Virus record (IMG/VR): IMGVR_UViG_3300035520_000763
Location: 71,032 to 135,031 of that record
DNA: 64,000 nt
From: a virus
Taxonomy: Duplodnaviria > Heunggongvirae > Uroviricota > Caudoviricetes
Reading direction: 5' to 3' (one strand)
Shown here: piece by piece, positions 2,796 through 59,070 of the stretch
Layout: each line of letters starts with the position of its first letter
Numbering within the stretch: the stretch's first letter is position 1
Notes under the pieces: model-generated
Told to the model about the DNA's origin: nothing
What the model saw: the letters and a program-made list of their open reading frames with translations, nothing else
Databases searched by the model: none
Position numbers and translations under genes: made by a program

Positions 2796-3101
2796 ATGAT
2801 TCAATACAATATTTACCAAACAGATGGAAATTACAGATTCATGTGGTGGGATGCGGTGAAAGACGAATTTTCACTTGACGATTATAAAAGGGTTTACAGT
2901 GGGAAATTGCCGGATGATACTATGGACGATCAGGAGATATTGGAAGAAATGTATACAAAATTCAACGTAAATCGTCCAGATGATTATAGAGCCAGATCTG
3001 TGTCTGTAAGTGATGTTATAGAGCTAATCAGGGATGGCACATCGAAATATTATTATTGCGATAATATGGGATGGAAATTGATTAAGGAGGTTGATAAATA
3101 A
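2796..3101 (+). CDS. hypothetical phage protein
   Basis: ORF track; RBS GGAGATGA. Confidence 0.55.
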   Translation: MIQYNIYQTDGNYRFMWWDAVKDEFSLDDYKRVYSGKLPDDTMDDQEILEEMYTKFNVNRPDDYRARSVSVSDVIELIRDGTSKYYYCDNMGWKLIKEVDK

Positions 3102-10506: not shown

Positions 10507-11517
10507 ATGTCAGATAACAGGTATGCAACCAAGAGAAAAGGGAAAACAGAAAAAGATCCATTTTGGAATTTACAGGATATTAAAAATCTGGTTGAATGGT
10601 TTGAAAATAATAATAAGTGGGATGGATATTTAATCACTATGTTCGAACTCCTTCTTGGTAGACGAATTGGTGATACAGTTTCAATGGTGTGGTCAGATTT
10701 TTATTATGAGAATGGAAGACGCAGAGACGAAATTGTAACCGTTGTTGAACAAAAAACGGGAAAGACAAATGAAGTTCCTTTGACAAATTTAGCATTTGAA
10801 GCAATAGAAAAATATTGCCAGAATACTAAAATCAATCCAATGGAACATTATAATGAATATATTTTCAATTTTCCTTGTAAAACGAAATGGATTAAGCGAA
10901 AGGATAATCCGATTTATAAGCATAAAGAATGTGATGTAGAATTGTTCTGCAAAGTACTTGAAAAGACATATGAGAATGATAGAAAAGCTAAAATTGTTGA
11001 AAAATTTTATAATCAAAAGGAATACTCAAGCTTTGGTGACTATTTTTATTATGAGGTGGAGTATACGGACATTATTAAATGGACAACAGATACGTATCGT
11101 ATAATGTTTAACAAAGCAAAAAAAGCGTGTGGCATATCCTATGATGTCTCAACACATAGTTTCAGAAAATCTTTTGGTTATTGGATTCATCATACGCATC
11201 CATATGATCCAGACTGTTTGTTGTCTCTCCAAAAGATGTTTGGTCACGCAACATTGCAACAGACAATGGATTATATAGGATTAACAAAAGAAAAGAACAG
11301 GATGTACATTAATGACCATAGTGAAATGATTAGGAAAACATTAGATGGCAACGCAGATGAAATCATAAAGAATAGTCCTGTTATTTCTCTTAAAACAGAA
11401 GATTATGGGAAAATAATTAAGACAATAATAGATATGTGCAGAGAAAATGAAAATTCTGATATGGAAATATATCAGATGGCAATTAATATGGGAAACGAAT
11501 TAAGAGTTGTGAAATAA
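10507..11517 (+). CDS. int: tyrosine site-specific recombinase / phage integrase
   Basis: R in LLLGRRIGD (box I), HSFRKSFGYWIHH (H-x-x-R box II) and catalytic Y in TMDYIGL; size 336 aa. Confidence 0.8.
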   Translation: MSDNRYATKRKGKTEKDPFWNLQDIKNLVEWFENNNKWDGYLITMFELLLGRRIGDTVSMVWSDFYYENGRRRDEIVTVVEQKTGKTNEVPLTNLAFEAIEKYCQNTKINPMEHYNEYIFNFPCKTKWIKRKDNPIYKHKECDVELFCKVLEKTYENDRKAKIVEKFYNQKEYSSFGDYFYYEVEYTDIIKWTTDTYRIMFNKAKKACGISYDVSTHSFRKSFGYWIHHTHPYDPDCLLSLQKMFGHATLQQTMDYIGLTKEKNRMYINDHSEMIRKTLDGNADEIIKNSPVISLKTEDYGKIIKTIIDMCRENENSDMEIYQMAINMGNELRVVK

Positions 11518-33190: not shown

Positions 33191-33607
33191 ATGAGAAAGA
33201 ATAGAACAAATCCAAATTATAAAAGTAAAAATCATAGTAAATTCATACTTACATATCACATCATATTTGTTTGTAAATATCGTAAAAAACTTCTTACTAA
33301 ATATGGTGAAGACATAAAGCAGATAATGTTTGATATAAGCAAGAAGTATGATTTTGAAATTAAAGAAATGGAAGTTGATAAAGATCATATTCATATGATG
33401 ATAGAATCTGTTCCAAGGTTATCACCATTACAGATTGTAAGAACATTAAAACAGCAATCTACTATTCAAATATGGAGAATGTATAATAAAGAGTTAAAAC
33501 ACCATTATTGGAATGAAAACACCTTTTGGACTGATGGATATTTCTGTTCAACAATTGGAGAAGTAAGTGGTAAGATATTAAAGCGTTATATACAGAACCA
33601 AGGATAG
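33191..33607 (+). CDS. tnpA: IS200/IS605-family Y1 (HuH) transposase TnpA
   Basis: HuH motif DHIHMMIE and catalytic-Tyr region TDGYFCSTIG; 138 aa. Confidence 0.85.
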   Translation: MRKNRTNPNYKSKNHSKFILTYHIIFVCKYRKKLLTKYGEDIKQIMFDISKKYDFEIKEMEVDKDHIHMMIESVPRLSPLQIVRTLKQQSTIQIWRMYNKELKHHYWNENTFWTDGYFCSTIGEVSGKILKRYIQNQG

Positions 33608-33624
33608 AAAGGAGACGGTTATAG

Positions 33625-34728
33625 ATGTTAAAAGCTTATAAATATAGATTATATCCAAATAAAGAACAGCAAGAATATTTTGCAAAATGTTTCGGTTGTG
33701 TACGATTCATCTATAATCGTATGCTTTCAGACAAGATTGAATATTATAAAGAAACAAAACAGAAACTTAATAATACACCTGCTCAGTATAAAAAAGAATT
33801 TGAATGGCTAAAAGAGGTTGATTCACTTGCATTAGCAAATGCTCAAATAAATTTACAGGCTGCTTATAACAACTTTTTCAAGCGTCCAGAAGTAGGATTC
33901 CCAAAATTCAAAAGTAAGAAAAACCACTATTACTCTTACACTACTAATAATCAGGGTGGAAATATTCATGTATCTGATAGATATATCAAACTTCCTAAGA
34001 TTGGTTTAGTAAGAGTAAAGAAACATAGAGTGTTTGCTGGTAAAATAAAATCTGTAACTGTTTCTAAAAATCCAAGTGGTAAGTATTTTGTGTCTGTATT
34101 GGTAGAATGTGAAGAACAAGAAAAACTTCAACAATCTAATACAAATGTAGGGATCGACTTAGGAATAAAAGAATTTGCTATTACTTCTGATGGAGAAAAA
34201 ATAGAAAATCCAAAGTTTCTTAAAAAATCAGAAAATAGACTTAGGAAATTACAAAAGGATTTGTCTCGCTGTCAAAAGGGCAGTAAGAATAGAGAAAAAT
34301 GCAGAATAAAAGTTGCAAAACAACATGAAAAAATAACTAACCAAAGAAAAGATTTTTTACATAAACTTTCAAAACGAATTATTGACGAAAACCAAGTCAT
34401 TTGTTTAGAGAATCTTAAAATAAAGAATATGTTAGGAAATCATAAATTGGCAAAATCAATATCCGATGTGTCATGGAGCGAATTTATAAGACAGTTGGAA
34501 TATAAAGCTGAATGGTATGAAAGAGAAATTATAAAAGTAGATACTTTCTATTCGTCAAGTCAGATATGTTCTAATTGTGGTCATAAAGATGGAAAGAAAG
34601 AACTTTCTGTAAGAGAATGGATTTGTCCTGTATGTGGAACATACCATGACAGAGATATTAATGCAGCTATAAATATCCTGAATGAAGGATTGAGAATAAG
34701 AAGCGTAGGGACTACGCCGATAGCCTAG
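33625..34728 (+). CDS. tnpB: IS605 OrfB / TnpB RuvC-like RNA-guided nuclease
   Basis: N-terminal [11 protein letters not shown], RuvC-I GIDLGIK, Ruv[15 protein letters not shown]-terminal zinc finger and RuvC-III motifs SSQICSNCG ... CPVCG ... [10 protein letters not shown]; 367 aa. Confidence 0.85.
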
Positions 34729-44313: not shown

Positions 44314-45150
44314 ATGGAGAAGTTCTTGTTTGATGGAGAAAAAGCTGAAGAGACGAATAATAAGAATTGGTATAAACTCAGTAAAATCCCAATAGAAATT
44401 ACAGAAAAACAATCCGATAAGCATATTAATAAAAGATATGAGTTAAAAGCTGGTTATGTACCCACAGAGTTAATGCCAAATATTATTACAATGGAAATGT
44501 ATGATAGTGAAGAATATAAAGATGTTATTGGATTATATTCACTAAAATATGATACAGAAGATGGCGGTTATGAACCTATTGAATTTAATATAGAAAAAAT
44601 ATATTCAAGGAAAGATTATGAATTTGTCCCAAACAAATATAATGCAGAGGTAGATTTACTTACACAAATTGAATATCCAGAGGTTGCTTATCAAGACAAA
44701 CCATGTAAAGTAACACATAGTCAAATGTTTTCTATTATTAAAAATTATGTGAAACAAAACATAGATACAAGTTGTGCAAAAATCGAATCCGATTATGATT
44801 TTCATTTTGAAGTATCAAGAAATATTACTTTAGCAGATCCATATACAGTAAGAGTTGATGTAAATAATTCTGTATTACATAGCAGAAGGAAACCTAAATG
44901 GGTTAATAAAATGATAGCTGATAAGAAAGTAACTGTCTTAAATATTAAAAGAGACTTAGGTGATAAATCTTATGGAGATGATTGCTGTGTAGCACCTGAA
45001 ATTATTGGAGAGAATTATACGGATCTTTCTCAAAAGGTGGACAAATACTTAGAGGAATTAATGAAAACAATCAATATAAAATATTGTGAATGTCCTAATT
45101 GTAAAGGTTGGGGAATAGTGGAGGTAGAAGATGAAAACAAAATTCAGTAA
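44314..45150 (+). CDS. hypothetical phage protein (C-terminal CECPNCKG)
   Basis: ORF track. Confidence 0.5.
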   Translation: MEKFLFDGEKAEETNNKNWYKLSKIPIEITEKQSDKHINKRYELKAGYVPTELMPNIITMEMYDSEEYKDVIGLYSLKYDTEDGGYEPIEFNIEKIYSRKDYEFVPNKYNAEVDLLTQIEYPEVAYQDKPCKVTHSQMFSIIKNYVKQNIDTSCAKIESDYDFHFEVSRNITLADPYTVRVDVNNSVLHSRRKPKWVNKMIADKKVTVLNIKRDLGDKSYGDDCCVAPEIIGENYTDLSQKVDKYLEELMKTINIKYCECPNCKGWGIVEVEDENKIQ

Positions 45151-49607: not shown

Positions 49608-50330
49608 ATGGGTTCAAAGAGCAGAATAGTTAATAACATTCTGCCAATAATTCAACAAAGATTAAAAGATTATAATATTAAAACATATATTGAGCCATTT
49701 TGCGGCGGGCTTAATGTAATAGACAAAGTGGTTTGTAATAAGAAAATTGCATCAGATAATCATAAATATCTTATTGCCATGTTCCAAAATTTAGACAAAA
49801 TTCAAGAACTTCCCGATTTTGTAACAAAAGAACATTATTCAGAAGTAAGAGATTGCTTTAATGAAGGAGAAGTATATTTTCCAGATTGGTACATAGGAGC
49901 AATCGGTTTTCTTGCAAGCTATAACGGAAGATTTTTTGATGGTGGATATTCAGGATTAGTCAACACGAAAGCTGGTACTGTAAGAAACTATTATGACGAA
50001 GCAAAAAGAAATTTAATAGAACAGATACAAAACTTGCAAGATATAGAGTTTCGATGCTGCGATTACAGAGAATATACAGATTATGAAGATTGTTTGTTCT
50101 ATTTAGATCCACCATATAAGGGTAAGAAACAATATGGTTCAAGTAAGGAATTTAATCATGATGAGTTTTGGAACTGGTGTAGACATATGAGTGAGAAAAA
50201 TATTGTACTTATTAGTGAGCATGAGGCTCCTTCGGATTTTGAATGTATCTGGGAGCAACCGGTTAAAAGAACAATTGACAATAATAAGCGTGTAAATGTA
50301 GTTGAAAGATTATTCGAGATTAGAGAGTGA
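49608..50330 (+). CDS. dam: Dam-family (D12-class) DNA adenine methyltransferase
   Basis: Motif I IEPFCGGLNV and motif IV YLDPPYKG characteristic of Dam-like MTases. Confidence 0.75.
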   Translation: MGSKSRIVNNILPIIQQRLKDYNIKTYIEPFCGGLNVIDKVVCNKKIASDNHKYLIAMFQNLDKIQELPDFVTKEHYSEVRDCFNEGEVYFPDWYIGAIGFLASYNGRFFDGGYSGLVNTKAGTVRNYYDEAKRNLIEQIQNLQDIEFRCCDYREYTDYEDCLFYLDPPYKGKKQYGSSKEFNHDEFWNWCRHMSEKNIVLISEHEAPSDFECIWEQPVKRTIDNNKRVNVVERLFEIRE

Positions 50331-53109: not shown

Positions 53110-54150
53110 ATGACTATTGAACAGATCAAAACAAAATTAAAGTCAGAAGAATATGATTTTCTTAAAAATAATGAACATTTGGGAAGTAATATTATTTTAT
53201 TAACTCTAGGTGGTAGCTATGCTTACGGTACTAACATTAATACATCTGATTATATGAGCGATTTAGACTTCAGAGGAGTTGCATTAAATAAAAAAGAAGA
53301 AATTTTAATAGGGCACCCTTTCGAACAAGTTGATAATCGTGAGACAGATACCGTGATTTATAGTTTCAATAAGATTATAAAACTTCTTACAAATTGTAAT
53401 CCTAATGTTATTGAGCTTTTAGGCGGAAAGAAGGAATATTATTTATATAAATCAAAAATTGGAGATGAGTTGATTGAGAATAGAAAGTTATTCTTATCTA
53501 AAAAAGCTGCTTTTACATTTGGGGCTTATGCAAGTAGTCAATTATATCGTTTAAATCAGAAATCGGCACATCAATTATCACAAGCTGGATTAGAACAGCA
53601 TATCCTAAAGACGCTTGAATTTATGAAGACTGATTTCAATAAGAAATATTCAGATTTTGCTGAAGATCAGATTAGTCTTTATATTGATAAGGCAATACAG
53701 GAAGGATATGATACAGAAATTTTTATGGATATAAAGCTGACTCATTATCCTTTACGTGATTATTGTTCAATGTGGAGTGAATTGCAAAATACGGTTAAAG
53801 CATATGGAAAGATTGGAAAACGTAATGAGAAAGCGATTGAACATGGGAAAATCGCAAAGCATATGATGCATTTGATTCGCCTCTATATGATGTGTCTGGA
53901 TATTCTTGAAAAAGAGAAGATTATCACATACAGAGAAAAAGAGCATAATCTGTTAATGGATATTCGTAATGGTAAATTCCTTGATGATAATGACCAACCA
54001 ATTCCAGAGTTCTTTGAAATGGTTAATGATTATGAGAAGAAACTGGATTATGCGAAAGAGAATACTAATCTGCCGGATAATCCAGATTATAATGCAATCA
54101 ATGAGTTTGTTGCTAGTGTCAACGAAAGGGTGGTAAAAGGTGAAATTTAA
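53110..54150 (+). CDS. predicted nucleotidyltransferase (Pol-beta-fold, PF10127-like; GS...DLDFRG and NPNVIELL motifs)
   Basis: Motifs TLGGSYAYGT...SDLDFRGVA...NCNPNVIELLGG read from translation. Confidence 0.55.
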   Translation: MTIEQIKTKLKSEEYDFLKNNEHLGSNIILLTLGGSYAYGTNINTSDYMSDLDFRGVALNKKEEILIGHPFEQVDNRETDTVIYSFNKIIKLLTNCNPNVIELLGGKKEYYLYKSKIGDELIENRKLFLSKKAAFTFGAYASSQLYRLNQKSAHQLSQAGLEQHILKTLEFMKTDFNKKYSDFAEDQISLYIDKAIQEGYDTEIFMDIKLTHYPLRDYCSMWSELQNTVKAYGKIGKRNEKAIEHGKIAKHMMHLIRLYMMCLDILEKEKIITYREKEHNLLMDIRNGKFLDDNDQPIPEFFEMVNDYEKKLDYAKENTNLPDNPDYNAINEFVASVNERVVKGEI

Positions 54151-55495
54151 TGTAAATATACCGACAGATGCGAATGAGCTAATCCATACATTACAGAAAA
54201 ATGGACACTCAGCATATGTGGTTGGTGGTTGTGTCAGGGACAGCGTATTAGGTAGAATCCCGCATGATTGGGATATATGTACATCAGCTACACCATCTGA
54301 AATGTTAGAAATTTTCAAAGATAGAAGAATAATTGAAACTGGTTTGCAGCATGGAACGGTAACTGTTGTAGTGAACAATGAGCCTTATGAAATTACTACC
54401 TTTCGGATTGACGGTAATTATTCAGATAATCGTAGACCAGATAATGTAACATTCACAGATAGTTTAAGAGAAGATTTAAAACGAAGAGATTTTACTATCA
54501 ACGCAATGGCTTATAACGATGAAGAAGGTTTGATTGATCCGTTTCATGGTATGGAAGATATTAATCATAGAAAAATAGATTGTGTTGGTTCAGCAAAAGA
54601 TAGATTTAGTGAAGATACTCTAAGAATACTTCGTGCAATAAGATTTGCAGCACAGTTGGATTTTGTAATATCTCCTGATACTGATTGGGAAATTCATCGA
54701 CAGTACAAGAGTTTAGAGAATATATCTATTGAAAGAATTAATAGTGAATTTTGTAAAATCGCTTCTTCAGATACTTTTTGTATTCAGCTTCTTTTATATA
54801 ATGATGTATTTTCTTTATTTATCCCAGAATTAAAGAATATGATTGACTTCCCTCAAAACAATCCGTACCACGAATATGATGTGTTTGACCACACCATTCA
54901 TGCATTAGAACGATGTGATAGTAAGGATTTAACTGTGAGATTAGCTGTGTTATTTCATGATTTTGGGAAAACACATTGTTATCAGGATGGAGAAGATGGT
55001 ATTAGGCATTTCAAAGGACATGGAAAAGTAAGTGCCGAAATGACTGATTGGATTATGAAATGTCTTAAATTTGATAATAAGATGAGAAATAATGTTGTAG
55101 AACTTGTTTATTATCACGATGCTACATTTGAAGTTGGAAAGAAGTATATAAAGAGATGGCTTAATAAAATTGGGGTAAAACAGTTTAAACGATTATTAGA
55201 AGTAAGAAAAGCTGATATAAAAGGTCAAAAAGCAGAATACGAAAAAGAACGAATAGAGAAAATAAATAATATAGAGAAGATTCTGGAAGAAGTATTACAG
55301 GAGCAAGAATGTTTCTCTTTGAAAAATTTGGCGGTCAACGGCAATGACTTAATTGAAATGGGTTATAAATCCGGAAAAGAATTAGGTAAAACATTGAATC
55401 TGCTCTTACAGATGGTTATTGATGGTGATTGCCCAAATGATAAAGAGAAATTATTACAAGAAGCAGAAAATTTGTGGATGGAAAGGAGAATGTAA
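54140..55495 (+). CDS. cca: CCA-adding tRNA nucleotidyltransferase with HD phosphohydrolase domain
   Basis: Head motifs VVGGCVRD...WDI (DxD), RRDFTINAMAY, LRAIRFAAQL; HD motif VLFHDFGK; 451 aa. Confidence 0.8.
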   Translation: MKFNVNIPTDANELIHTLQKNGHSAYVVGGCVRDSVLGRIPHDWDICTSATPSEMLEIFKDRRIIETGLQHGTVTVVVNNEPYEITTFRIDGNYSDNRRPDNVTFTDSLREDLKRRDFTINAMAYNDEEGLIDPFHGMEDINHRKIDCVGSAKDRFSEDTLRILRAIRFAAQLDFVISPDTDWEIHRQYKSLENISIERINSEFCKIASSDTFCIQLLLYNDVFSLFIPELKNMIDFPQNNPYHEYDVFDHTIHALERCDSKDLTVRLAVLFHDFGKTHCYQDGEDGIRHFKGHGKVSAEMTDWIMKCLKFDNKMRNNVVELVYYHDATFEVGKKYIKRWLNKIGVKQFKRLLEVRKADIKGQKAEYEKERIEKINNIEKILEEVLQEQECFSLKNLAVNGNDLIEMGYKSGKELGKTLNLLLQMVIDGDCPNDKEKLLQEAENLWMERRM

Positions 55496-55498
55496 GTA

Positions 55499-56386
55499 TT
55501 GAAATGTTTTTACCATACGGATGAGGATGGCAAGTGTAGTGCATTTTGGGTAAAAGAACTTGCAAAACACTATGATAATTATGATATAGAATTTATACCT
55601 ATTAACTACGGTATGGATTTTCCGTTTGACTCTATTAGAGAAAATGAACAGGTATACATTGTTGATTATTCAATCTTTCCTAATGAAATGGAGAAGTTAT
55701 TAGAGATAACAAAAGATGTTACGTGGATAGATCATCATATTTCTGCAATTAACAGATACAATACTCCTGAGTTTTCGCATTTACATATTAAGGGATTGAG
55801 ATATGACGGAATTGCCGGTTGTATGCTTACATATTGCTACTTGAAACATATGGTTAAAGTGGAGCAGAAAAATGGAAGTATAGTTTGTACTCCGTTCGAT
55901 ATTTCAATGACAGAAGATGCCCCTATGTTTACAACGTATATAGCAGATTTTGATGTGTGGAAATTTGAATATGAACCCACAAAAGCATTTGAAATGGGTT
56001 TACAGTTATATGATTTAGATCCAAATAGTAGAGTGTGGAAGTCATTTTATTATGAAAGTGAGATTCAAAATATTATCAAAGACGGTTATCTTTTATTAGA
56101 TTATCGTGATAAATGGTCTAAAGAATATTGCGAATGTACTGGCTTTGATGTGGAATTTGAAGGATATAAATGTTTTGCTGTAAATTTAGCGATGATTAGT
56201 AGCGACAATTTTAAATCAATAAATGAAGAAGATTATGATATGTTTATTGGCTTTTCATATAATGGCAGATCATGGAATTATTCACTCCGTTCTACAAAGG
56301 TTGATTGTTCCAAGATTGCTATGAAATATGGTGGCGGTGGACATAAAGGTGCATCAGGTTTCAGTTCAGATAGGTTGTTGTTTTAA
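55499..56386 (+). CDS. DHH/DHHA1-family phosphoesterase (NrnA/RecJ-like)
   Basis: Motif I HTDEDGKCSA, motif III WIDHH, DHHA1 GGGGH; TTG start per ORF track. Confidence 0.65.
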   Translation: MKCFYHTDEDGKCSAFWVKELAKHYDNYDIEFIPINYGMDFPFDSIRENEQVYIVDYSIFPNEMEKLLEITKDVTWIDHHISAINRYNTPEFSHLHIKGLRYDGIAGCMLTYCYLKHMVKVEQKNGSIVCTPFDISMTEDAPMFTTYIADFDVWKFEYEPTKAFEMGLQLYDLDPNSRVWKSFYYESEIQNIIKDGYLLLDYRDKWSKEYCECTGFDVEFEGYKCFAVNLAMISSDNFKSINEEDYDMFIGFSYNGRSWNYSLRSTKVDCSKIAMKYGGGGHKGASGFSSDRLLF

Positions 56387-57457: not shown

Positions 57458-57548
57458 ATATAAGTTGGAAGATAAATAAGAAAGTAGGTGATATTACATA
57501 TTTGAAAATAATACATATGAGCTATTTCAAGGTAAATGTCTTAAATTG

Positions 57549-58241
57549 ATGAAAGATATTCCAGATAAATCTATTGATATGATCTTATGCGATTTGCCAT
57601 ATAACCGTACTCAAAACAAATGGGATATAGTAATCCCATTCGACAAAATGTGGGAGGAATATACTAGGATAATAAAGAACAATGGTGCGATTTGTTTATT
57701 TGCAGATGGCATGTTTATGGCGGATCTAATGGAGAGTAATAAAAAATTATGGAGATATAATTTGGTATGGAATAAAGTTTTAACTTCTGGATTTTTAAAT
57801 GCTAATAGGCAGCCATTAAGACAGCATGAGGAAATTTGTGTTTTTTATAAGAAACAACCCACATATAATCCGCAAAAGGTAAAAGGGAGTAAGAATCATA
57901 GCAAGGGCAAAGAAAAGAAGAATAAAAATAATAATTACAACGATTTTGAATTTGTAGATAATTCGGATGAATTAGGCGATATGAAACATCCAACAAGTAT
58001 TTTGACTTTTCAAAAACCACATCCGTCAACTATGGTGCATCCAACACAGAAGTCAGTTGAACTTTGTGAATGGTTAATTAAGACATATACAAACGCAGGA
58101 GATACAGTATTGGATAATTGTATGGGTTCCGGTACAACAGGCGTTGCTGCTCTGAATCTTGACAGGAAGTTTATAGGAATGGAACTAGATGAGAATTATT
58201 TTAATATAGCGGAGAAGAGAATAAAAGAATTGGAGAAATAA
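57549..58241 (+). CDS. beta-class DNA methyltransferase (motif IV DLPY before motif I GSGTTGVAA); ParB-MTase-like
   Basis: Motifs ...SIDMILCDLPYN... and VLDNCMGSGTTGVAA; conserved N-terminal LFQGKCLKL segment encoded in frame upstream without a canonical start. Confidence 0.65.
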   Translation: MKDIPDKSIDMILCDLPYNRTQNKWDIVIPFDKMWEEYTRIIKNNGAICLFADGMFMADLMESNKKLWRYNLVWNKVLTSGFLNANRQPLRQHEEICVFYKKQPTYNPQKVKGSKNHSKGKEKKNKNNNYNDFEFVDNSDELGDMKHPTSILTFQKPHPSTMVHPTQKSVELCEWLIKTYTNAGDTVLDNCMGSGTTGVAALNLDRKFIGMELDENYFNIAEKRIKELEK

Positions 58242-58490
58242 ATGTTACAAACGTTGGAAGAATTGTGTGAAAGTGAAGAATTGTGTAAATATTGTAATGC
58301 TACTGAATATGGAGAACATAAATTTGTTACTACTCCAAATGGATATTATTCTTGCGAAGGTTCTTATTGCGAAGATGCTTATGATTCATATTTAGATGAT
58401 AAAAATATAACGGAAAATATTGTGAAACATGCATGTAATGTGACATTAGTAAACAAGGAGGAACTGGATGAGTACACCGTTAAAGTTTGA
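58242..58490 (+). CDS. hypothetical Cys-rich protein
   Basis: ORF track; ATG abuts upstream stop. Confidence 0.5.
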   Translation: MLQTLEELCESEELCKYCNATEYGEHKFVTTPNGYYSCEGSYCEDAYDSYLDDKNITENIVKHACNVTLVNKEELDEYTVKV

Positions 58491-59070
58491 ATTTGATTTT
58501 GATGAAGTTTTTGAAGGAATTAAGCAAGGTGTTATTAGAGAATTATCTGAAGCAAATTTTGAAGATGCAAAAACGGTCGCTATTAATCAGATTAAGACTG
58601 AAATTAGGCAAAAAATTAGTTTAACATATGGTGATTACAATGGTTTAAAAAATGAAGTTAAAAATGAAATTAAGGAAAAAGTCTTTGATTCAGTTATTGA
58701 AGAAGTAAATAATAAATATTTTAATCATTTCAAGGATTACATAGAATCACAATTATCAAAAAATCCTGAACGATTAAAAGAAGTAACTGGAGAAATAAAA
58801 GCAGAAGTTGAAGACAAGATGTATTCTGAACTCTATTCAGATATAAAACAGGATTTATTAAATGAATTAAGAAGTTCTTTTTCTACAACATTTGATGTAT
58901 TTAGCGGTAATTCTATTAAAATTAATGGCTCTGATAAAACAATATCCAAAGAAGAATATGAAGAATTGTTAGATAGAGATAGAAAATTGAGTGCATTGGA
59001 AGCAGGTGGCGTTGATAATTGGCAATGGTATGGAGAGTCATTAGAGCAATACTATAATGAGAAAGAATAA
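58468..59070 (+). CDS. hypothetical phage protein
   Basis: ORF track; RBS AAGGAGGAA. Confidence 0.55.
   Translation: MSTPLKFEFDFDEVFEGIKQGVIRELSEANFEDAKTVAINQIKTEIRQKISLTYGDYNGLKNEVKNEIKEKVFDSVIEEVNNKYFNHFKDYIESQLSKNPERLKEVTGEIKAEVEDKMYSELYSDIKQDLLNELRSSFSTTFDVFSGNSIKINGSDKTISKEEYEELLDRDRKLSALEAGGVDNWQWYGESLEQYYNEKE

Follow-up and report, generated by a model that had tools for sequence, protein, structure and literature searches.

Background

Phage-encoded examples of RlaP, CCA-adding enzymes, Thg1 and DHH phosphoesterases are all on record (PMC7824862). Here we describe a cassette of three consecutive open reading frames (ORFs), located on the + strand at positions 53110-56386 of a 64,000-nucleotide (nt) stretch of DNA from a Caudoviricetes virus (IMG/VR record IMGVR_UViG_3300035520_000763, positions 71,032 to 135,031; hereafter the window). 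The cassette is predicted to encode an RlaP-family nucleotidyltransferase, a CCA-adding enzyme with an HD domain and a DHH/DHHA1 phosphoesterase, and it may serve to maintain or repair the 3' ends of transfer RNAs (tRNAs).

RlaP owes its name to an association with RNA ligases and is thought to refill nucleotides lost at anticodon-loop breaks before ligation (PMC7824862). A published study states that three strictly conserved aspartates are required. In the first biochemical characterization of the family, Pseudomonas enzymes added one or two nucleoside monophosphates, with any base, to an RNA 3'-OH; they were inactive on 3'-phosphate ends, favoured mimics of damaged tRNAs and, in vitro, labelled RNAs the size of both ribosomal RNA (rRNA) and tRNA with any nucleoside triphosphate (PMC12776372). 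Among DHH proteins, NrnB was defined in a 2025 study as the group of COG2404 proteins with both DHH and GGGH motifs. All of these enzymes degrade RNA in the 3'-5' direction, those without a long C-terminal extension (clades B and C) prefer short RNA, and DHH-DHHA1 domains are also reported to be fused to tRNA nucleotidyltransferases (PMC12709177). The DHH phosphohydrolases of jumbo phages have previously been noted as phage accessory enzymes (PMC7824862).

Immunity that clips tRNA 3' tails was described only in 2025-2026, for Cas12a3 and for a Cas13a from a Lachnospiraceae bacterium. Cas12a3 shortens many tRNAs at the 3' end by 2-4 nt, as far as the discriminator base (PMC12851939), and the Lachnospiraceae Cas13a cleaves them at A|CCA. 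Products of another enzyme in the latter study, LbuCas13a, carried almost exclusively 2',3'-cyclic phosphates, as is to be expected for HEPN RNases (bioRxiv 10.64898/2025.12.03.690598). Toxins of the MenT type extend acceptor ends.

Gene organization and protein families

The three ORFs were found exactly where a first-pass annotation, made from the sequence alone, had placed them, and all three of its family assignments were borne out by domain and hidden Markov model annotation of each protein (Table 1). The stop codon of the RlaP gene lies beyond the GTG start of the CCA gene, giving an overlap of 11 nt, and the CCA stop codon is separated from the TTG start of the DHH gene by a gap of 3 nt. 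The genes had been described as overlapping and translationally coupled, which fits the first junction but not the second. The start codons assigned to genes 2 and 3 are correct, since the N-termini are kept in homologues (MKCFYH in the case of DHH). Junctions in relatives are equally tight (an 8-nt overlap at the first; at the second, either an overlap of 4 nt or a gap of 6 nt), and the operon-like packing is thus conserved. No terminator-like site was found on the + strand between 51.5 and 58.5 kb. The window is AT-rich (approximately 31% GC) and nearly all of its ORFs of at least 100 amino acids (aa) are on the + strand, forming a long one-directional transcription or replication block. The GC skew is strongly positive throughout, with values of 0.17-0.41 in every 2-kb bin from position 1 to 64000.

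Table 1. Coordinates of the cassette, of related loci and of other genes discussed in the text (positions are those of the window or of the named locus)
Feature	Locus	Position	Strand	Details
RlaP (gene 1)	window	53110..54150	+	346 aa; ATG start; AGGAGG Shine-Dalgarno sequence 8 nt before ATG
CCA-adding enzyme (gene 2)	window	54140..55495	+	451 aa; GTG start
CCA nucleotidyltransferase head	window	54212..54577	+	PF01743; residues 25-146 = profile positions 1-125 of 126
CCA HD phosphohydrolase region	window	54872..55264	+	approximately residues 245-375; Pfam HD match at residues 262-328
DHH/DHHA1 phosphoesterase (gene 3)	window	55499..56386	+	295 aa; TTG start behind GGAG
Gad1 (inhibitor of Gabija)	window	44314-45150		PF25705, 1.4e-62, 212 bits; 8 kb upstream of cassette
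T7 gp5.9-like (RecBCD inhibitor domain)	window	58468-59070		200 aa; 2 kb downstream of cassette
DNA methylase, D12 class	window	49608-50330
DNA methylase, N6_N4	window	57546-58241
Tyrosine integrase	window	10507-11517
YodL-like	window	2796-3101
IS200/IS605 TnpA (Y1 transposase)-TnpB pair	window	33191-34728
IS200/IS605, second copy	L151	3105-4617		same-sample fragment; a few kb past the end of the window
TnpB near cassette	L063	1073-2314
TnpB near cassette	L068	2547-3926
RlaP-CCA-DHH	L004, L005			IMG/VR contigs
RlaP-CCA-DHH	L063/L064			NCBI contig of a metagenome-assembled genome (MAG), 223 kb; L063 = RlaP-X313-CCA-DHH-Thg1
RlaP-CCA-DHH	L072, L073, L076, L077/L079			metagenome
RlaP-CCA-DHH				cellular: Lachnospiraceae bacterium A4, Eubacterium plexicaudatum ASF492, Eubacteriales MAG
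X313	L063	5701-6642
X313	L005	3625-4614
X313	L077	5678-6631
X313	L156, L157
X313 remnant	L004	4538-4597		20 aa
DHH, HNH endonuclease, RNA ligase (PF09414)	L073	8880-10579		HNH gene inserted between DHH and ligase
Gad1 homologue	L073	16000-16872		approximately 7 kb from cassette
RlaP not adjacent to CCA or DHH	L001	2220-9014		Clostridioides phage AR1086-1
DHH and RlaP of ~160-kb family	L011	6001-9107		represents L006-L061
Thg1-like, metallophosphoesterase, DHH	L065	5852-8879

The first gene is predicted to encode a Pol-beta-type RNA 3'-end nucleotidyltransferase of the RlaP family (PF10127). Its Pfam score is 57.8 bits against a cut-off of 23, with residues 24-334 matching profile positions 16-247 of 249, and it also matches phrog_388 (1.2e-48). 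The motifs GS...DLDF and NPNVIELL, on which the earlier assignment had been based, are present and conserved across homologues: GGS..AYG, SDxD, a third aspartate (TDT) and NPN.xE are kept in 13 homologues, including that of coliphage Av-05, and the protein itself has the Pol-beta catalytic signature (GGSYAYG, SDLDF and the invariant TDT aspartate) plus NPNVIE. No sequence relative was found among solved structures. RlaP homologues occur in 229 phage records, the best being those of a human-faecal contig and of Clostridioides phage AR1086-1. In the latter (L001), the homologue is 45% identical and adjoins neither a CCA nor a DHH gene; it lies directly after an amidoligase-like gene and 5 kb from a KptA/Tpt1 RNA 2'-phosphotransferase gene, which is a different RNA-repair-type setting. 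In coliphage Av-05, which is unrelated, CCA and RlaP genes are located approximately 2 kb apart.

The RNA ligase neighbourhood from which RlaP takes its name is absent here: pooled Pfam scans of the 79 window ORFs of at least 100 aa contained no RNA ligase family, and no polynucleotide kinase, RtcA/RtcB or Thg1.

The second gene is predicted to encode a class II CCA-adding tRNA nucleotidyltransferase with a C-terminal HD domain. Pfam matches are to the PolyA_pol head (3e-40), tRNA_NucTran2_2 (2e-13) and HD (1.2e-4), and the protein passes the NCBIfam CCA equivalog NF009814 (PRK13299) with 310.2 bits (cut-off 290). Its nearest solved structures are CCA-adding enzymes (6ibp/7otr, 5e-63; 1miv, 1.3e-57), the match extending over the head only. 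The motifs GGxVRD, DxD, RRDFTINA and EDxLRxLR are conserved in the alignment. The match to a second model, NF008137 ('multifunctional CCA addition/repair protein'), is partial (residues 108-383) and, at 131 versus 451 bits, below the equivalog level. A poly(A) polymerase was rejected as the identity of this protein, as it scores 173.9 bits with one PcnB model (TIGR01942; cut-off 305.65) and 109.9 with another (cut-off 702). The Pfam HD score is marginal (22.8 bits versus 22). The HD residues (H in DHT, HD in FHDFGK, HxxGH, HD in YYHD and D in KAD) are kept in all 12 full-length phage homologues, and HD matches were found in each of the five related CCA genes scanned (best 1.2e-7); the domain looks intact. 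CCA homologues are found in 522 phage records.

The third gene is predicted to encode a stand-alone DHH/DHHA1 phosphoesterase that is probably NrnB-like (COG2404-type), nearer to NrnB than to NrnA. Both Pfam scores are below the gathering thresholds (DHH, 24.3 versus 28.1; DHHA1, 22.2 versus 25.9), which is a failure of sensitivity and does not exclude the protein from the superfamily: it matches phrog_4771 (7.4e-45), and the DHH/DHHA1 motifs originally reported for it are present and invariant in 35-38 homologues (H6, D8, D10, D56, D78-H79-H80, D152 and GGGH278-282). The two motifs that form part of the definition of NrnB (PMC12709177), DHH and GGGH, are both present, and the protein ends 13 residues past GGGH, a short C-terminus like that of NrnB clades B and C. 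In the strict sense the earlier label 'NrnA-like' does not hold, as the NCBIfam NrnA model NF053633 gives 24.8 bits against a cut-off of 350. The Joint Genome Institute (JGI) label of an identical protein, 'oligoribonuclease NrnB/cAMP/cGMP phosphodiesterase', is an NrnB heading and is the sole source of the COG2404-type name. DHH homologues occur in only 28 phage records.

An AlphaFold (AF2) model of the DHH protein has a mean confidence (pLDDT) of 93.1. Foldseek searches of the PDB with this model returned, at probability 1.0 and 11-18% identity, NrnA, DhhP (Borrelia), archaeal PAP phosphatase, the TM1595 pApA phosphodiesterase and PggH; the top-ranking structure is that of an H. pylori protein without characterised function (the matches include 6mtz), and the neighbours extend to phosphodiesterases of pApA and pGpG and to the catalytic domain of GdpP. 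In BFVD, the model matches viral DHH phosphohydrolases with a TM-score of up to 0.71. A RecJ-like DNA exonuclease was rejected as a candidate identity: this is a 295-aa stand-alone two-domain protein with better matches to nanoRNase and pAp-phosphatase types.

These assignments bear on the proposal that the cassette acts in RNA turnover or salvage, the nucleotidyltransferases tailing host RNAs for decay in the manner of poly(A) polymerase I and the nanoRNase finishing the products to mononucleotides that would feed phage replication. The CCA head domain is common to PcnB, RlaP labels both rRNA-sized and tRNA-sized RNAs in vitro, and nanoRNases complete RNA decay (PMC12709177). However, gene 2 passes the CCA equivalog, falls far under both PcnB cut-offs and has CCA-adding enzymes as its best solved relatives; RlaP stops after 1-2 nt; and the linkage of the DHH gene to Thg1 and tRNA arrays (see below) is left unexplained. 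We regard RNA turnover as highly improbable.

Conservation of the cassette in related loci

Relatives were collected by comparing the DHH protein with IMG/VR, metagenome contigs and GTDB genomes, which gave 194 loci (numbered with the prefix L) that were screened by tblastn, jackhmmer and ARAGORN. A megablast search of the cassette against 50,697 phage records produced no match, indicating a phage without a close relative among deposited phage genomes. At the protein level, RlaP-CCA-DHH is found in the same order, with 55-79% identity, on further contigs of gut phages and in genomes of Lachnospiraceae (Table 1). The hosts of the cassette are Lachnospiraceae and their relatives, within the gut Clostridia (Lachnospiraceae, Oscillospiraceae). 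The flanking genes lack synteny: for example, the homologue of the gene that precedes RlaP in L004/L005 lies at a distance of 27 kb in the window. Since the flanks differ while the cassette is kept, it has been inherited or moved as a block.

The cassette varies among relatives. First, several of them have a conserved gene of 313 aa (X313), with no Pfam or PHROG match, in the interval from RlaP to CCA. X313 has been lost from L004 except for a remnant and is absent from the window; it is probably an optional fourth member. Second, a Thg1 gene is located directly 3' of DHH in L063. Third, an RNA ligase gene follows DHH as the second gene downstream in L073. No homologue of this ligase was seen in the window or among the other loci fetched. 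Separately, one RNA_lig_T4_1 match came from seven related loci taken together in a pooled Pfam scan.

The DHH gene is also linked to tRNA-end genes and to tRNA genes in other arrangements. In a family of ~160-kb IMG/VR phages, 50 of 52 loci have the order DHH, a 261-aa gene, a sigma factor gene and RlaP; none of the 52 loci screened has a CCA enzyme gene within 6 kb, and the five that were scanned for tRNAs have none over the same distance. Genes resembling nucleoside 2-deoxyribosyltransferase and PcfJ are nearby in this family. In a Christensenella MAG, RlaP is immediately upstream of DHH. In another lineage, to which Ruminococcus sp. YE282 and an Oscillospiraceae MAG belong, Thg1, Metallophos and then DHH lie downstream of tRNA arrays, and the arrays include tRNA-His in L065-L067 and L129. 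This suggests a parallel kit for the tRNA 5' end that uses the same DHH clade. The trio of a Thg1-like 3'-5' polymerase, a calcineurin-type metallophosphoesterase and DHH was seen in L065 and also in L066-L070, L086, L091, L099, L122, L129 and L161. On many contigs a Gln-Leu-Met tRNA array precedes DHH by 2-4 kb, and in L055 the DHH gene is inside an array, between tRNA genes. The upstream flank extends to 5 kb or more in 45 metagenome DHH loci. In 28 of these, tRNA genes lie within 8 kb of DHH, mostly 2-7 kb upstream, and the number rises to 31 when RlaP, CCA and Thg1 genes over that distance are counted as well; these are raw counts over interrelated loci. Such repeated linkage ties the viral DHH clade to tRNA-end enzymes and not to nucleotide-signal genes. 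Together with the conservation of the cassette, it strengthens the earlier view of the three genes as one unit aimed at tRNA 3' ends.

The tRNA genes raise the alternative of a housekeeping role, in which the cassette serves the tRNAs of the phage itself and has nothing to do with defence. Gene 2 would then supply CCA tails, DHH would trim 3' trailers or clear spacer debris, Thg1, where present, would add G-1 to phage tRNA-His, and RlaP would have a minor or different role. In L004 and L005/L072, three tRNA genes are located approximately 1 kb upstream of RlaP, and none of the three encodes CCA. The metagenome counts, the position of DHH in L055, the tRNA-His genes that precede Thg1-Metallophos-DHH and the number of phage records with CCA-type enzymes are all in keeping with this alternative. 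Several CCA-encoding phage groups, such as the Vequintavirinae, are rich in tRNAs. By contrast, ARAGORN found no tRNA anywhere in the 64-kb window, none was found in a fragment reaching approximately 6.5 kb past its end, and no Rfam family reached the gathering threshold in the whole window; the five scanned loci of the ~160-kb family likewise have no tRNA nearby. Moreover, normal tRNA maturation has no step for an untemplated adder of 1-2 nt such as RlaP, the cassette lies among anti-defence genes and not beside replication or translation genes, and the RNA ligase two genes after DHH in L073 points to repair. We consider a purely housekeeping role unlikely. The first-pass annotation had noted the absence of an evident tRNA island and had named the accompaniment of a phage tRNA array as a finding that would speak against its view. 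The absence holds for the window but not for L004 and L005/L072, or for the many DHH genes that follow arrays; conversely, cassette and phage tRNAs do go together in these nearest relatives, and a part in tRNA maturation for the CCA-adding enzyme, and perhaps for DHH, is therefore plausible.

A further alternative concerns the DHH protein, which could be an independent anti-signalling enzyme that merely shares an island with the other two genes. Its substrates would be the messengers of cyclic oligonucleotide-based anti-phage signalling systems (CBASS), of type III CRISPR or of cyclic di-AMP (c-di-AMP) signalling, or tRNA-fragment alarms. A role against cyclic-nucleotide signals has been proposed for the DHH phosphodiesterases of jumbo phages (PMC7824862), the structural neighbours of the protein include the pApA, pGpG and GdpP enzymes named above, the region of the window is rich in anti-defence genes, and a 2026 preprint reports a tRNA-derived second messenger downstream of Cas13. 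The genes to which DHH is linked, however, are specifically those for tRNA-end enzymes and for tRNAs, and this holds across five or more gene arrangements; the close spacing of CCA and DHH (3 nt in the window) is conserved, with an overlap in L073; and the 25 commonest of the 79 Pfam families detected in seven related loci include no other recurrent family related to cyclic nucleotides. Characterised NrnB enzymes left c-di-AMP uncut (PMC12709177). The gene context thus gives no support to the suggestion, made with the original assignment, that DHH degrades cyclic signalling nucleotides, and we consider an anti-signalling role very unlikely. Both this reading and that of RNA decay are less well supported than tRNA 3'-end repair or the maturation of phage tRNAs.

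A proposed route for tRNA 3'-end repair

The reading that we prefer, and to which we give about an even chance, is that the cassette carries out ligase-independent maintenance or repair of tRNA 3' ends in large phages of gut Clostridia. It is built on the identities of the three proteins, their intact catalytic motifs, the tight packing of the genes, the conservation of the cassette and the linkage of DHH to tRNA-end enzymes; from family chemistry and gene linkage we infer what the enzymes act on, in which order they do so and that they serve counter-defence. Because no ligase is present and the partners are a CCA-adding enzyme and a DHH protein, the target would be the acceptor 3' end, where no ligation is needed, and not the anticodon loop.

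In the proposed route, a tRNA with a cut, blocked or mis-extended single-stranded NCCA tail would first be cleaned. The NrnB-like DHH protein might trim the damaged tail 3'-to-5', strip a terminal phosphate, or both (the direction of attack and the tRNA substrate are guesses), and the HD domain of the CCA-adding enzyme could also remove 2',3'-cyclic or 3'-phosphates. RlaP requires a 3'-OH, and so ends left by metal-independent RNases need healing first, for which the HD domain and DHH are the candidates. RlaP would then add one or two nucleotides, restoring the discriminator base upstream of CCA. A CCA-adding enzyme rebuilds positions 74-76 only; a lost discriminator base therefore needs one nucleotide to be added first, as RlaP chemistry does. 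In the last step the CCA-adding enzyme would rebuild CCA, making the tRNA chargeable again. Phage tRNAs that are encoded without CCA can be completed by the same enzymes.

The likely pressure would be host immunity that disables tRNA tails: Cas12a3, acceptor-cutting Cas13a, HEPN toxins or tail-modifying toxins. In a more specific version of the proposal, the phage uses the cassette expressly to counter immune nucleases and toxins that put the NCCA tail out of action, with DHH resetting the 3'-OH, RlaP restoring the discriminator base without a ligase and the CCA-adding enzyme finishing the end. We put this forward only tentatively. The Lachnospiraceae hosts and the anti-defence neighbours in the window and in L073 fit a counter-defence role, though they are no proof of it.

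Several observations weigh against repair of acceptor ends. The RlaPs that have been characterised are Pseudomonas enzymes from RtcB operons, belong to a cluster that differs from the phage RlaPs and preferred anticodon-loop breaks over acceptor ends (PMC12776372). Identity between the DHH protein and characterised DHH enzymes is no more than 11-18%. The nearest relatives of the cassette carry CCA-less tRNA genes beside it, so that plain maturation of phage tRNAs explains the CCA-adding enzyme, and perhaps DHH, without defence. The loci are interrelated and represent approximately six distinct architectures, not dozens of events. Finally, DHH homologues below 45% identity (Methanobacterium, Alphaproteobacteria) have no such neighbours, and the association therefore belongs to the Clostridia-phage clade. 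Maturation of phage tRNAs and counter-defence are compatible roles, and they are inseparable here.

Genomic surroundings

The cassette is flanked by genes for a Gad1 protein, a gp5.9-like protein and DNA methylases (Table 1), which make the region look like an anti-defence island; this setting fits the counter-defence purpose suggested in the first-pass annotation. A Gad1 homologue and methylases are also near the cassette in L073. PAPS-reductase-domain genes were seen near the cassette in L004, L073, L077, L164 and others (four of 117 ORFs in a scan of seven loci), and N6_N4 methylases account for five ORFs in the same scan, which hints that DNA-modification genes share the accessory region of the cassette.

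A TnpA-TnpB pair of the IS200/IS605 type is located upstream in the window, with a second copy in the same-sample fragment, and TnpB genes are near the cassette in two relatives. The repeated copies suggest that IS605-type elements are active in this phage group. The first half of the window (1-32500) contains, in addition to the integrase and YodL-like genes, a MazF/PemK-like toxin, two proteins with the GmrSD N-terminal domain, an SPFH protein and STAND/AAA ATPases (with hints of NACHT and nSTAND3). These genes are both defence-like and temperate-phage-like.

Significance

The literature searched contained no description of a conserved RlaP-CCA(HD)-DHH cassette with ligase-independent acceptor-end logic, of a viral DHH clade assigned to tRNA-end metabolism rather than cyclic-nucleotide degradation, or of a phage countermeasure to tRNA-tail-clipping immunity. 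If the counter-defence proposal is true, the cassette would be the first known viral answer to immunity that targets tRNA tails: the enzyme set is what one would design for rebuilding a lost N73-C-C-A, and it is found in phages of the same bacterial group as the Lachnospiraceae Cas13a. RlaP would gain a second biological context, independent of RNA ligases, and the widespread, uncharacterised viral DHH phosphohydrolases would acquire a concrete, testable job. If the cassette only matures phage tRNAs, it would be an ordinary case of phage translational self-sufficiency. As two cultured strains (Lachnospiraceae bacterium A4 and Eubacterium plexicaudatum ASF492) carry copies, the cassette is directly testable.

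Comparison with known systems

The cassette resembles the tRNA repair system of T4 (Pnkp and Rnl1, with the T4 RlaP homologue NrdC.11) and the Pseudomonas RtcB-RlaP-RtcA system in that it would be a phage's answer to tRNA damage in which RlaP refills 3'-OH ends before function returns (PMC12776372, PMC7824862). It differs from both in the partners of RlaP, which are a CCA-adding enzyme and a DHH protein: no kinase, ligase, RtcA or RtcB is found in the window or beside most copies, and in contrast to the T4 and Rtc operons a ligase (PF09414) is near the cassette in L073 only.

In bacterial tRNA 3'-end turnover, HD-type Cca acts alongside RNase T, RNase PH and RNase R, and the cassette similarly pairs a candidate exonuclease or phosphoesterase with a CCA enzyme, which together would strip and rebuild tRNA tails. 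The CCA enzyme of the window has the HD domain that underlies the E. coli-type 'CCA addition/repair' name (the partial NF008137 match). Unlike E. coli-type Cca, however, its head is of the Firmicutes type (PRK13299; PDB 6ibp, 1miv). The candidate exonuclease belongs to the DHH superfamily and not to the DEDD or PH types, an RlaP is added, and all three genes are held in one mobile phage cassette.

The DHH protein is similar to the NrnB nanoRNases (COG2404) in its stand-alone DHH plus DHHA1 organization, its DHH and GGGH motifs and its short C-terminus. Unlike cellular NrnB, it is viral and linked to tRNA-end enzymes, a context that is undescribed for the cellular proteins. It shares fold and size with the DHH proteins of jumbo phages and giant viruses (PhiEaH1, PaBG, RP12, the AR9 'NrnB' and Klosneuvirus), with TM-scores of at most 0.71. 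In contrast to the jumbo-phage DHH proteins, which are proposed degraders of cyclic nucleotides, the Clostridia-phage clade is linked to RlaP, CCA-adding enzymes, Thg1 and tRNA arrays.

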